This document shows, one piece after another, positions 28,262 through 30,285 of a stretch of 37,268 nt of DNA. The DNA comes from Anaerolineae bacterium. Lineage in GTDB: Bacteria; Chloroflexota; Anaerolineae; J102. The DNA lies in the NCBI GenBank assembly GCA_027036755.1, contig JALWDV010000417.1:1-37268 (forward strand). Reading direction: 5' to 3'. Each line of letters begins with the position of its first letter. Position 1 is the stretch's first letter. Under the pieces are notes generated by a model. That model was not told the origin of the DNA. It saw only the letters and a program-made list of their open reading frames with translations, and did not search any database. A program made the position numbers and the translations under genes.

Positions 28262-28309
28262 CCCCAACCTCGCCTCTACCTCTCCCCGCCTCACATGCCC
28301 GGGGGAATG
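28262..28309 (+). pseudogene. Orphaned 5' end of an aminotransferase gene (PRLYLSPPHM...), a duplicate of 29162-29211
   Basis: The core ctctacctctccccgccNcacatgNccggg at 28274-28303 matches 29173-29202 with 2 mismatches. It reads PRLYLSPPHMPG, against PRLYLSPPHMSG in the intact gene. It sits directly after the PGT stop codon. Confidence 0.7.
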
Positions 28310-28345
28310 TTGGCAAATGGATCCCGAAGAGAGCTCTTTGGCCTG

Positions 28346-28354
28346 TGGTATAAT
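28346..28354 (+). promoter_or_regulatory. Extended -10 promoter element (TGGTATAAT) for the TA-like pair
   Basis: TGGTATAAT at 28346-28354, the same 9-mer as at 16290-16298. Confidence 0.45.
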
Positions 28355-28435
28355 CAATTATCATTGCGATGGATGCAACGAGGTTGCCCAAGCCAAAATG
28401 AACTGATTGATCCTACACGTATCCGAAAATCGATT

Positions 28436-28768
28436 ATGGCTATCAATAACGAACAGACTCTCAGCCAAATTCAATCGCTGGCCCGACTTTACCAAACAGG
28501 CTATCGCAGTCCCGTCATCGACGCCTCTATTCAGAAACTCATAAGTCTGGAGCGAGCGCGGCTTCAACGCGAGCTGGAGGAGTTACAGGAACATTTGCAT
28601 GCCTTCGAAGAGGAATACAATCTATCTTCTGAAGAATTTCATCGTCGATTTCAGAGAGGCGAACTGGGGGACGATGCGGATATGTTTGAGTGGGATGCGT
28701 TTTATCAAATGATGGTGACTGTTAGAGAACAACTGGAAACGCTTCAGCCGGAAACAGCTTCGCAGTGA
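28436..28768 (+). CDS. Small acidic coiled-coil protein, putative antitoxin/partner of the downstream gene
   Basis: About 110 aa counted from ATG 28436. An alternative in-frame start exists at ATG 28373. It has heptad-like ERARLQRELEELQEHLHAFEEEY and an acidic tail motif ELGDDADMFEWDAFYQM. No HTH is evident. A GTGA overlap links it to the next ORF. Confidence 0.5.
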   Translation: MAINNEQTLSQIQSLARLYQTGYRSPVIDASIQKLISLERARLQRELEELQEHLHAFEEEYNLSSEEFHRRFQRGELGDDADMFEWDAFYQMMVTVREQLETLQPETASQ

Positions 28769-29151
28769 ACGCTTTCGACTATCTCGAATCAGTCAAACTT
28801 GCGTTGGCTTTGAGTGACATAGTGCAAACTGTTCAAATCGTTCGGGAATATAGCCGGGAAAGTCATGGCTTTTTCCGCGCACGATTGGAATTGAGAAACG
28901 GTGACTTCTTGGAGGTTTCCGAATTCTTTGTTGCCCAGGATGACGAGATTCATATCTTGCAATATCGTTATCAATGGATGGATGGCGCTCGGAAGCAGTT
29001 GCGAAAGCGTTGGGACAATGCAACGCATCACCCGGAACTGGATAACTTCCCCCACCATGTCCATGTGAAAGCAGATCATGTGGTCATGCCCGGCCAAGCA
29101 ATGCATATCGGTCTGCTTCTCGATATGCTCCAAGAAGAGCTAGAGGACTGA
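28765..29151 (+). CDS. DUF6516 / TumE-annotated-family-like protein (putative toxin component)
   Basis: 128 aa. The motif YRYQWMDGARKQLRKRWDNATHHPELDNFPHHVHV matches my recollection of the (R/K)(W/Y)DNAPHH-x5-FPHHKH signature of that family. This is recalled, not searched. Confidence 0.5.
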   Translation: MNAFDYLESVKLALALSDIVQTVQIVREYSRESHGFFRARLELRNGDFLEVSEFFVAQDDEIHILQYRYQWMDGARKQLRKRWDNATHHPELDNFPHHVHVKADHVVMPGQAMHIGLLLDMLQEELED

Positions 29152-29157
29152 TCTCCT

Positions 29158-30285
29158 TTGACCCCTCCCCGTCTCTACCTCTCCCCGCCCCACATGTCCG
29201 GGCGGGAAATGCAATACGTTCAGGAAGCGTTCGATAGCAACTGGATCGCGCCCCTGGGCCCGAATGTGACTGCGTTCGAGCAGGAATTCGCCGCCAAAGT
29301 GGGCGCAAAACACGCGCTCGCGCTCAGCGCCGGCACCGCGGCCATCCATCTCGCCCTCATTCACCTCGGCGTAGGCCCGGGCGATGAAGTCATCGTCTCC
29401 ACCCTCACCTTCGCAGCTAGCGCCAACCCCGTCGTCTATCAGGGCGCAAAACCGGTCTTCATCGACAGCGAACGCACCTCCTGGAACATGGATCCCGACC
29501 TGCTGGCCGAGACTCTGGCCCGCAAGGCCCGACAGGGACGCCTGCCCAAGGCCGTCATTCTTGTCCATCTCTACGGCCAGACCGCGGACATCGACCGCAT
29601 TCTCGCCATCTGCAACAAGTACGATATCCCCCTCATCGAGGACGCAGCCGAGGCCCTGGGCGCCCGCTACAAAGGCCGATCGCCCGGCGTCTTCGGCAAA
29701 GCGGGCATCTTCTCCTTCAACGGCAACAAAATCATCACCACCTCCGGCGGCGGCATGTTGGTCTCCGACGATGCCGAACTCATCGCCCACGCCCGCAAAC
29801 TGGCCACCCAGGCCCGCGACCCCGCCCCCCACTACCAGCATTCCGAGATCGGTTACAACTACCGTATGAGCAACGTGCTGGCGGGCATTGGCCGCGGTCA
29901 GTTGCAGGCGCTGGATGACCGGGTGCGGCGCAAGCGGGAGATTTTCGAGAGCTATCGCCGGGCGTTAGGCGATCTCCCCGGCATCGACTTCATGCCCGAA
30001 GCGCCCTGGGGACTACACACCCGCTGGCTCACCGTCATCACCGTCGATCCCAATCGCTTTGGCGCCACCCGCGAAGATATCCGCCTGGCCCTGGAAGCCG
30101 AAAATATCGAATCCCGCCCCTTGTGGAAGCCCATGCACCTGCAACCGGTTTTCGCCGGGTGCGAGGCTGTTGGAGGCGACGTAGCCGAATCCCTCTTCAC
30201 CCGCGGCCTCTGCCTCCCCTCCGGCACAGCGATGTCGCAATCTGATATCGACAGGGTTGTCGGCATCATCCGCTCTATGCGATAA
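29158..30285 (+). CDS. DegT/DnrJ/EryC1-family PLP-dependent sugar aminotransferase (EpsN/PglE-like, probable 4-aminotransferase)
   Basis: 375 aa. LYLSPPHMSGRE..YV.EAFDSNWIAPLGP and FNGNKIITTSGGGMLVS (catalytic Lys) are as in EpsN/PglE-type enzymes. The TTG 29158 start is needed to include the conserved LYLSPPHM segment. Confidence 0.88.
   Translation: MTPPRLYLSPPHMSGREMQYVQEAFDSNWIAPLGPNVTAFEQEFAAKVGAKHALALSAGTAAIHLALIHLGVGPGDEVIVSTLTFAASANPVVYQGAKPVFIDSERTSWNMDPDLLAETLARKARQGRLPKAVILVHLYGQTADIDRILAICNKYDIPLIEDAAEALGARYKGRSPGVFGKAGIFSFNGNKIITTSGGGMLVSDDAELIAHARKLATQARDPAPHYQHSEIGYNYRMSNVLAGIGRGQLQALDDRVRRKREIFESYRRALGDLPGIDFMPEAPWGLHTRWLTVITVDPNRFGATREDIRLALEAENIESRPLWKPMHLQPVFAGCEAVGGDVAESLFTRGLCLPSGTAMSQSDIDRVVGIIRSMR

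Follow-up and report, generated by a model that had tools for sequence, protein, structure and literature searches.

The 37,268-nucleotide contig JALWDV010000417.1 of an Anaerolineae bacterium (assembly GCA_027036755.1), hereafter the window, encodes a large cluster for a sulfated surface polysaccharide, with all genes on the + strand of this one 37-kb contig. Within the cluster, a cassette of two small genes, a candidate toxin-antitoxin (TA) pair, separates a sugar aminotransferase gene from an orphaned copy of that gene's first codons. Alignment with relatives that lack the cassette indicates that about 0.85 kb of DNA (the promoter-like element TGGTATAAT, a TumA-like gene and tumE) was inserted once, at about codon 16 of the aminotransferase gene. 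The gene is now read from a second copy of at least 33 (probably 41–47) nt, joined by a different leader to the tumE stop codon. The lineage in which this took place was probably Anaerolineae/Chloroflexota. Taken as a whole, the arrangement is best explained, with a probability that we put at roughly 0.6, by host recombination that inserted the cassette through a homologous anchor and an illegitimate join, displacing the resident gene end. The features of the target site are as follows.

27655–28251, + strand: small PglC-type phosphoglycosyltransferase (PGT) gene, 198 aa; Pfam Bac_transf 7e-55; GC content at third codon positions (GC3) 0.48; left flank of the target site
28262–28309, + strand: copy A, the orphaned and non-functional aminotransferase 5' end (codons ~2–16), recognised from the repeat, the empty-site alignment and a GC3 of 0.75
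28346–28354, + strand: TGGTATAAT, predicted promoter-like element of the extended −10 type, at the insert's left end; present twice in the window (0.14 expected by chance)
28436–28768, + strand: gene for a TumA-like antitoxin candidate, 110 aa (MAINNEQTLSQ...); NCBIfam TumA 2.5e-11, PADLOC PDC-M44A 2e-12
28765–29151, + strand: TumE (DUF6516) candidate toxin gene, 128 aa, GTG start; Pfam PF20126 78.4 bits, PADLOC PDC-M44B 1e-16
29139–29160, + strand: right junction and leader, comprising the last three tumE codons and stop (CTAGAGGACTGA), a 6-nt spacer and the aminotransferase TTG start
29161–29211, + strand: copy B, the functional aminotransferase 5' end (codons 2–18); empty-site sequence aligns from 29169/29170
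29158–30285, + strand: intact DegT/PglE-type sugar aminotransferase gene, 375 aa; Pfam DegT_DnrJ_EryC1 1e-105, residues 14–371
30357–32312, + strand: PglF-type UDP-sugar 4,6-dehydratase gene, the conserved right neighbour; Pfam Polysacc_synt_2 2e-121, syntenic in all relatives

Copy A begins 10 nt past the PGT stop codon (28249–28251) and, running from ccc caa cct to ggg gga atg, translates as PQPRLYLSPPHMPGGM. Copy B, TPPRLYLSPPHMSGREM, lies 851 nt further on, directly after the TTG start at 29158, from which the aminotransferase N-terminus reads MTPPRLYLSPPHMSGREM. A repeat search paired 28263–28303 with 29162–29202 (41 nt, 85% identity, spacing 899). Inside this repeat, the 30-nt core that the first-pass annotation had singled out (28274–28303 versus 29173–29202) indeed differs at exactly two positions; the window has no other such pair, and 100 dinucleotide-preserving shuffles gave an expectation of 0.00 matches. 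The codon usage of the orphan also fits the aminotransferase gene and not the neighbouring genes, its GC3 of 0.75 comparing with 0.79 for the aminotransferase gene versus 0.48 for PGT, 0.48 for TumA and 0.52 for TumE. A TTG at 28244, overlapping the PGT stop, is a possible former start of the gene.

By itself, the repeat is weaker evidence than it appears. The motif RIYLSPPHMSG is conserved throughout the aminotransferase family, and unrelated high-GC homologues (80 homologues, 55–71% protein identity) match either copy at 26–28 of 33 nt, as against 30 of 33 between copies A and B. The repeat alone is therefore suggestive rather than decisive, and it is the comparison with empty sites that settles the matter.

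Empty and occupied sites in relatives

We obtained close relatives by protein searches and retrieval of their contigs. Exact-match look-ups brought no entry for the window aminotransferase or PglF, probably owing to differing start codons, but did succeed with the sulfotransferase. Contig searches with the aminotransferase gave, among the matches listed, only relatives of at most 71% identity and no close empty site; they revealed family-wide synteny and turned up two distant loci, L021 and L013, considered below. The order PGT then aminotransferase recurs in distant phyla as well (L012, L031, L039, L053, L078).

Two relatives, L173 (a metagenome-assembled genome, MAG, at NCBI) and L174 (from ENA), have the empty site that the first-pass annotation had named as a check. 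Their gene order is glycosyltransferase–sulfotransferase–PGT (198 aa)–aminotransferase–PglF, with the aminotransferase start only 2–3 nt after the PGT stop; the PGT is 82–83% identical to that of the window at the amino acid level and the aminotransferase 87–88%. In L173, positions 1–3588 align to window 24710–28303 and positions 3556–4620 to window 29170–30234. Similarly, L174 1–1356 aligns to window 26931–28303 and L174 1323–2426 to window 29169–30272. The 33–34 nt present once in the empty sites thus align to both copies in the window, and the flanks are collinear over 3.6 kb to the left and more than 1 kb to the right. Such dual alignment of a single-copy target is the classical signature expected of an insertion with target duplication. 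Together with the repeat and the shuffles, the empty sites bear out the proposal that 28262–28309 is an orphaned start of the aminotransferase gene, and no cassette-free relative with both copies was found among the relatives.

The orphan is shared by five further assemblies: L081 (the same strain, 99.93%), L086 (91.5% over 8 kb), L176, L177 and L169, the last with a more divergent PGT. In L169, the junction between orphan and spacer aligns with that of the window once an L169-specific 280-nt element is removed. Since all five have the same orphan/spacer junction, a single, old, ancestral insertion event is indicated for all occupied sites. The L169-specific element (L169 5583–5865) is itself a GC-rich, hairpin-repeat-filled stretch of ~280 nt, flanked by the direct repeat TAGGCAGA; it separates the orphan from the promoter-like element, has no counterpart in the window, and resembles a MITE (miniature inverted-repeat transposable element). 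L176 offers a decayed state of the cassette with the orphan still present: a 320-nt deletion at L176 4564 (corresponding to window 28744–29063) has taken the last TumA-like codons and the first ~100 codons of tumE.

In relatives, the orphan is decaying. In L086 and L176 it reads PQSRHYLSPLHMSGG, with L-to-H and P-to-L changes at conserved residues. Wherever the orphans of the window and L086 differ, one of the two equals copy B, so the ancestral copies would have been identical over 36 nt. The differences between the two copies in the window are mostly synonymous, as had been noticed, but they are no sign of selection on the orphan, given its changes at conserved residues in relatives. We likewise dropped the idea that these synonymous differences reflect selection or an allelic origin in the window: L086 and L176 display lineage-specific decay of what were originally 36 identical nucleotides.

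It could still be argued that nothing was inserted, and that the repeat is a chance recurrence of a motif, the true N-terminus of a longer TumA-like protein beginning at 28244, or an assembly chimera. The motif is indeed family-wide, the open reading frame (ORF) 28244–28768 is open in the window, and a 157-aa antitoxin has been called in L081. Against this, the shuffles predict 0 matches, both copies have their counterpart in the empty sites, and independent assemblies deposited at ENA, NCBI and Logan show the same arrangement. In L086, L176 and L169, stop codons interrupt the ORF in frame, and the TumA-like protein is called at 110 aa in L086 and L169. We consider this explanation refuted. 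The broken ORF also means that the conserved antitoxin candidate is the 110-aa protein, of which the orphan is no part, and a conserved longer protein from 28244, raised earlier as a way in which the orphan might be explained, did not emerge. The 157-aa call in L081 (2965–3438), where the gene caller began the antitoxin at the orphan ATG, is an annotation artefact of the in-frame orphan, and a practical reminder that gene callers can mis-start an antitoxin in this way.

The cassette and its junctions

The cassette is a candidate TA pair of the TumA/TumE type, a reading supported by profile matches, gene order and conservation, and one that agrees with the first-pass description of a TA-like two-gene cassette. 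TumE matches Pfam PF20126 over residues 42–124 at 78.4 bits (gathering score 23.4), and the corresponding NCBIfam model at 59.4 bits, under the equivalog cut-off of 90. At 128 aa it is full length relative to homologues of 128–132 aa, and it carries the motif RKRWDNAxHHPxLxNFPHHVH. The upstream protein matches NCBIfam TumA at 43.6 bits (E 2.5e-11), under the cut-off of 100, and by its C-terminal ~50 residues only. Both proteins match the paired PADLOC models PDC-M44A (E 2e-12) and PDC-M44B (1e-16). The ratio of nonsynonymous to synonymous substitution rates (dN/dS) is 0.13–0.15 for the TumA-like gene and 0.04–0.12 for tumE. Both genes are under purifying selection, which is at most indirect support for toxicity and neutralisation.

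TumE-TumA is an experimentally validated superfamily of translation-targeting TA systems, in which six proteobacterial pairs were shown to be toxic and neutralised (Durairaj et al. 2023, PMC10584680). The window pair resembles it in having a DUF6516/TumE protein behind a small, overlapping upstream gene, both matching the paired models. It differs in its scores, which lie below the NCBIfam equivalog cut-offs, and in its antitoxin, a 110-aa helical protein that resembles the TumA model in the C-terminal ~50 residues alone. A TumE-like ORF with 32% identity also occurs in a distant genome, that of the Deltaproteobacterium NaphS2 (L030 7819–8031), where it sits between the aminotransferase and PglF genes.

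A promoter element and a translationally coupled gene pair had been noted between the two copies, and both were recovered. The TumA-like stop and the TumE start overlap in GTGA (28765–28768). The element TGGTATAAT occurs exactly twice in the 37 kb (0.14 expected), at 28346–28354 and at 16290–16298, upstream of hicB2; both copies stand 40–90 nt upstream of an antitoxin gene (TumA-like and hicB2, respectively), and the element is conserved in L086, L176 and L169. A two-hexamer promoter scan did not report it, as it has no −35 hexamer, and we retain it only as a conserved extended −10-like element. No family was matched in an Rfam search of the insert. In L169 and L176, a solo HicB-like gene has been inserted before TumA, and this same element is predicted to drive it.

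The two sides of the insert differ in character. On the left, the orphan has stayed in its native place behind the PGT stop, with GGGCGG (28303–28308) at or immediately before its end; no homology is evident at this junction (GGGCGG|...). On the right, the aminotransferase leader is CTAGAGGACTGATCTCCWTTG. Its counterpart in L083–L087, where TumAE is missing and the upstream region contains a FemAB-like gene and a repeat-rich spacer of 400 nt, becomes homologous to the window from 29139, 19 nt before the aminotransferase start, and diverges further upstream. These loci keep CTAGAGGACTGA (12 nt, the last three tumE codons and stop) as well as the leader, and in TumE C-termini the position equivalent to the Leu codon at 29140 is a conserved hydrophobic one. 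Having retained this tail of tumE, L083–L087 look like descendants of an occupied ancestor.

We compared the leaders of the two copies codon by codon. That of copy B, TGA TCT CCT TTG ACC CCT CCC, cannot be aligned with that of the orphan, TAA CTCCAACGCG CCC CAA CCT, although the cores that follow are near-identical. It follows that the GAGGA Shine-Dalgarno-like motif contained in CTAGAGGACTGA and the TTG start of the aminotransferase gene lie in sequence that arrived with the cassette. With ribosome-binding site and start codon both coming from the cassette junction, expression of the aminotransferase may be tied to the TA promoter. We also considered the copy B leader as a copy of the orphan leader or a relic of the PGT 3' end; the shared strings are only CTCC/CCCC and CATTGAC-like, too little in C-rich sequence to support either. 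As a further observation, tumE and the aminotransferase gene share a reading frame (window 29149–29160), separated by TGA and two codons (TCT CCT) before TTG, and stop-codon read-through at tumE would fuse the two proteins.

The arrangement had been described as a duplication of the gene's 5' end. The repeat is real, but given the different leader and the new TTG fused to the tumE stop, it is better called a displacement of the resident gene end. The interrupted gene does appear to remain functional, as claimed: it is intact (375 aa, with Pfam coverage of residues 14–371), its close homologues are 88–94% identical, and its dN/dS versus L086 is 0.10.

Recurrence and routes of insertion

The window holds a second event of the same kind, at the opposite end of a gene.

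15503–16858, + strand: oxidoreductase 3'-end repeat around two hicBA pairs; 86% over 49 nt; Pfam UPF0150/HicA

Here the 3' end of a GFO/IDH/MocA oxidoreductase gene (15503–15550) recurs at 16810–16858 (86%, 49 nt), just before the Wzx gene, and the repeats flank two tandem hicBA pairs (15663–16135 and 16334–16803). The insertion before the aminotransferase had been called the mirror image of this case, and the 3'-end repeat is there to justify the comparison. Within the tandem, the last ~54 nt of both hicA genes plus 7 nt past the stop are 92% identical (window 16082–16142 versus 16750–16810), the remainder of the two pairs being ~60–70% identical. This mosaic suggests that the second pair entered via recombination in the 3' end of the first, or that gene conversion took place.

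The idea of a recurrent mode of entry gains from further cases in relatives of the window and beyond. In L083–L087, the aminotransferase gene is followed by a hicBA-like pair, two small aminotransferase fragments, a UPF0175/DUF3368 (PIN) pair, a 176-aa 3' orphan, PglF and RelB/ParE; in L083 9150–11480 (and in L084, L085 and L087) the aminotransferase fragments are nested, with lengths of 71 nt and 109 nt and a 486-nt repeat inside the 176-aa orphan. L169 has TumAE upstream of its aminotransferase gene and, downstream, a hicA-containing pair with a 161-aa 3' orphan (354-nt repeat). Other small TA-like genes lie on both sides of the aminotransferase gene in L168, and none in L171–L174. L168, like L081, L086 and L176, derives from the JOHN19-1 and REYS20-1 metagenome samples.

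The functional and orphan copies of L083 share a stretch of ~300 nt without a single difference, after which identity falls to ~70–75% across the naturally variable C-terminal part. Their pairwise dN/dS is 0.20 (0.11 in L169), similar to the 0.15–0.21 seen between functional genes of different genomes. The functional copy of L083 thus carries the end of another allele, which means that homologous gene-end DNA entered with the cassettes. Along the L169 3' repeat, identity varies in patches, unlike what a single crossover would predict. Separately, the ~300-nt tract is 100% identical among the window (29808–30130) and the L083 functional and orphan copies (8650–8970 and 10770–11090), genes that are ~92% identical overall; it may reflect recent exchange or unusually constrained DNA.

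Outside the clade of the window, L021 (a Candidatus Didemnitutus MAG, Verrucomicrobiota, JAUXXD010000103.1) has at 5330–6160 a 59-codon 5' orphan ORF, then a hicBA-type pair made up of a 67-aa gene and a HicA gene, and lastly the full aminotransferase gene. The orphan starts MSAPRIYLSSPHMGG (MSAPRIY...) and the aminotransferase gene MANPRIHLSSPHMGG (MANPRIH...). The two copies disagree over their first ~20 nt, start codons and first six codons included, and then match at 133 of 135 nt (98.5%). This is an independent and recent event in another phylum. In L013, a cyanobacterial (Synechococcales) MAG, DUF4351 and Uma2-family endonuclease genes lie between two copies of the aminotransferase 3' end (129 nt, 90.7%; 2784–5536); the gene-end repeat architecture is alike, and the cargo is not a TA pair. 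In a scan of 173 aminotransferase loci for end repeats of at least 28 nt, L013 and L021 were the only distant cases, the rest falling in the window's own clade. Across events, the repeats measure 33–47, 49, 135, 354 and 486 nt, at differing positions and with no shared core.

This spread of fragment sizes is what might be expected if orphans were remnants of a whole second aminotransferase gene, produced by tandem duplication or brought as an allele in a swapped serotype block and then mostly deleted, with the cassette arriving separately. Fragments of 71, 109, 354 and 486 nt in relatives, and a locus that is a compositional mosaic with swapped variable blocks, could both be read in this way. 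The account nevertheless needs at least three independent events that chanced to leave an intact gene, the orphan breakpoint is common to all five occupied assemblies, and L021 arose independently with 98.5% identical repeats, that is, recently and without intermediates. We regard it as distinctly improbable.

We favour insertion by host recombination rather than by a recombinase of the element's own, put forward as a proposal as regards the donor, the route and any stabilising role of the TA pair. The incoming DNA would already have held the cassette beside a homologous aminotransferase 5' end. On the right side, this donor gene end would have paired with the conserved RLYLSPPHMSG-coding stretch as a homologous anchor; on the left, the other donor end would have been joined illegitimately, a few codons deeper in the resident gene. 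The route could be homology-facilitated illegitimate recombination (HFIR) or the topologically equivalent single crossover of a circularised fragment. Either would yield an "insertion with long target duplication", in which the gene end is displaced and the gene kept functional, and selection would then hold the TA pair, plausibly guarding the insert from deletion between the repeats. A donor with a homologous gene end fits the observation that the resident variable end stays with the orphan, that the end of the functional copy is foreign yet homologous, and that the two copies are near-identical in their conserved part. The right side of the cassette runs into conserved aminotransferase sequence behind a foreign leader, and L083 and L021 carry a donor-allele signature.

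Several points weigh against this proposal. Our searches found no donor locus with TumAE beside an aminotransferase gene lacking the orphan, and beyond this locus family no TumE came closer than 60% identity. The window repeat, at 36–47 nt, cannot tell duplication in situ from two near-identical alleles; the allelic argument therefore rests on analogy with L083, L169 and L021. Classical HFIR mostly deletes recipient DNA; to duplicate it instead would take a circular intermediate, a sister chromosome or replicative repair. An anchor of 33–47 nt is close to the shortest on which RecA-dependent exchange can act. This uncultured organism is represented by MAG contigs only, which makes any route of DNA uptake hypothetical, and stabilisation of the insert by the TA pair is conjecture.

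HFIR has been described by de Vries & Wackernagel (2002), Prudhomme et al. (2002) and Meier & Wackernagel (2003), as summarised in PMC5361080 and PMC3240628. Going by these summaries, the likeness lies in one incoming end being anchored by homology, here in the aminotransferase body, and the other joined without it, with no enzyme of the element involved. The outcomes they document are mostly insertion-deletions, whereas here the resident segment between the joints is kept twice.

A closer formal parallel comes from restriction-modification (RM) systems. "Insertion with long target duplication" of RM gene complexes was reportedly described by Nobusato and colleagues in 2000. Furuta et al. (2010, PMC2853133) found RM insertions with target duplications of more than 30 bp, in which the duplicated stretch frequently covers a start or stop codon and the gene survives intact. 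The present cases share a few-gene, addiction-type module without a mobility gene, in an insert under 20 kb (851 nt here) whose composition is unlike its surroundings. Another common feature is a pair of direct repeats, each more than 30 bp long, for which a genome with the empty site and collinear flanks has a single copy; the repeats include a translation start or stop, and the target gene survives. The present cases differ in cargo, which is a TA pair (TumA/TumE here; HicAB and PIN elsewhere) rather than an RM system; the DNA-breakage property invoked for RM is therefore unavailable, making this a variant and not a strict member of the class. They differ, too, in the foreign leader or tail of the functional copy, which points to homologous anchoring in a donor gene end. 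A literature search, of incomplete coverage, found no description of this insertion mode for TA cassettes.

The mechanism hypothesised for RM systems (PMC2853133) supplies the main rival to host recombination: a true long target-site duplication, in which staggered breaks ~40–50 nt apart receive a cassette without any aminotransferase sequence and fill-in synthesis makes the two copies. The new TTG start would then be a lucky or later-evolved feature. Identity of the inferred ancestral copies over 36 nt speaks for it, as does the sharp jump from ~50% to 98.5% identity at one point in L021, and the site displays the operational hallmarks of Furuta et al. (2010). Yet what adjoins the functional copy on its left reads, when translated, like an aminotransferase N-terminus (TPPR in the window; MANPRIH versus MSAPRIY in L021), which a random cassette end would not be expected to do, and the functional copy of L083 ends in a divergent homologous tail (dN/dS 0.2), as though DNA of another allele had come in. 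HicA, moreover, is a translation/RNA-targeting toxin and no DNA-cutting enzyme, which counts against breakage by the cargo. The same is true of TumE, a translation/RNA-targeting toxin that does not cut DNA (PMC10584680). On balance, we judge staggered breakage unlikely, though for the window itself it may still hold, since 36–47 nt carry no allelic signal.

Gene-end displacement of the kind that we favour has a mechanistic counterpart in polymorphic toxin loci. Orphan arrays in Rhs/CdiA-type loci were reportedly described by Jackson and colleagues in 2009 and by Poole and colleagues in 2011. Such arrays are known from Rhs, CdiA and type VI secretion system effector-immunity loci, for which HFIR has also been described (Kirchberger et al. 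2017, PMC5361080). There, too, an incoming module with a conserved anchor swaps the variable end of a resident gene, the old end becomes an orphan, and repeated events yield nested fragments, as in the L083 array. The likeness is mechanistic only: the displaced gene here is a biosynthetic aminotransferase and not a polymorphic toxin, the TA pair is cargo beside the gene rather than a C-terminal domain with its immunity gene, and displacement affects the 5' as well as the 3' end.

Site-specific integration by a trans-acting recombinase, or descent of the insert from a larger integrative element, would make the repeat an attL/attR pair. Phage 21 and e14 in icd, as well as islands that target tRNA and tmRNA genes, insert in a gene end and supply a substitute end, and a 40–50-nt repeat rebuilding the gene end is typical of such elements. 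Repeats of this sort are discussed in PMC2853133. As in those elements, a substitute end keeps the gene functional here and a direct repeat marks the junctions. They need an integrase and an att core, though, and family profile searches of the insert and of 30 window ORFs found no integrase or transposase, nor was one found in the occupied relatives. Repeat lengths vary tenfold between events, and positions vary as well, with no shared core. No inverted repeats were found at the boundaries (28304–28312 and 29139–29165), and the duplication of at least 33 nt contrasts with the short (2–15 bp) duplications of transposons and insertion sequences. Together, these observations argue against site-specific recombination and transposition, and we hold the integrative account to be very unlikely. 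The recombinase-less entry proposed in the first-pass annotation is upheld to the extent that neither the insert nor the 30 scanned ORFs hold a recombinase, an argument from absence in cis; an enzyme acting in trans may still have taken part.

If host recombination did act here, a wider picture can be sketched, which we offer tentatively and think doubtful in its full form. Small TA cassettes (TumAE, HicAB, PIN-type) might move without a recombinase, together with a short and variable end taken from a neighbouring gene that is widely conserved, the conserved body of that gene serving as a portable homology arm. They could thereby enter the orthologous gene in other and even distant genomes, pushing its end aside and leaving orphans behind, and TA function would keep the insert from being lost when the repeats recombine. 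Across phyla (Chloroflexota, Verrucomicrobiota, Cyanobacteria), addiction and defence modules would then have their landing pads in the conserved sugar-pathway genes of surface-polysaccharide loci. The movement of TA cassettes is an old loose end, horizontal transfer being clear and a mobility gene usually lacking. This locus family offers an unusually complete natural series, from empty through old occupied to nested or decayed states and a very recent event in another phylum, with a TA cassette throughout between the gene and a displaced copy of that gene's end. It extends insertion with long target duplication from RM systems to modules unable to cut DNA, and that such modules show the same mode argues that the mechanism belongs to host recombination and not to the cargo. 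Gene-end orphans, it suggests, could be a genome-wide marker for such insertions. Nothing here overturns current ideas; what it concerns is a poorly understood route of TA mobility.

The wider locus

The cluster around the target site encodes ATP sulfurylase/APS kinase, sulfotransferases, GT4 glycosyltransferases, Wzx, Wzy and FnlA/B/C-like enzymes, in addition to two phosphoglycosyltransferases, the DegT/PglE-type aminotransferase and the PglF-type dehydratase. The closest named homologues come from Anaerolineae/Chloroflexota MAGs. Within a locus of ~60% GC, positions 17200–21600 form a block of 32–39% GC that contains Wzx and three ORFs (18228–21578) without a Pfam match. This block, along with others of 45–50% GC (7600–10400 and 25600–29200), shows the locus to be a mosaic of imported modules.

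Two further repeats stand apart from the insertions. A 300-nt direct repeat, 99% identical and 576 nt apart (3837–4136 and 4413–4712), lies within the gene for a 784-aa tetratricopeptide-repeat (TPR) protein and looks like a very recent internal duplication. Arrays of an 8-nt periodic CCAGAGGG/CCAGAAGG-type repeat (23151–23219, 23577–23642 and 23779–23932) sit where a 389-aa epimerase-like gene ends and in the intergenic stretch leading to a 23S-rRNA-IVP/bAvd-like four-helix-bundle gene (23947–24339); they are also present in the relatives L083, L086 and L087.

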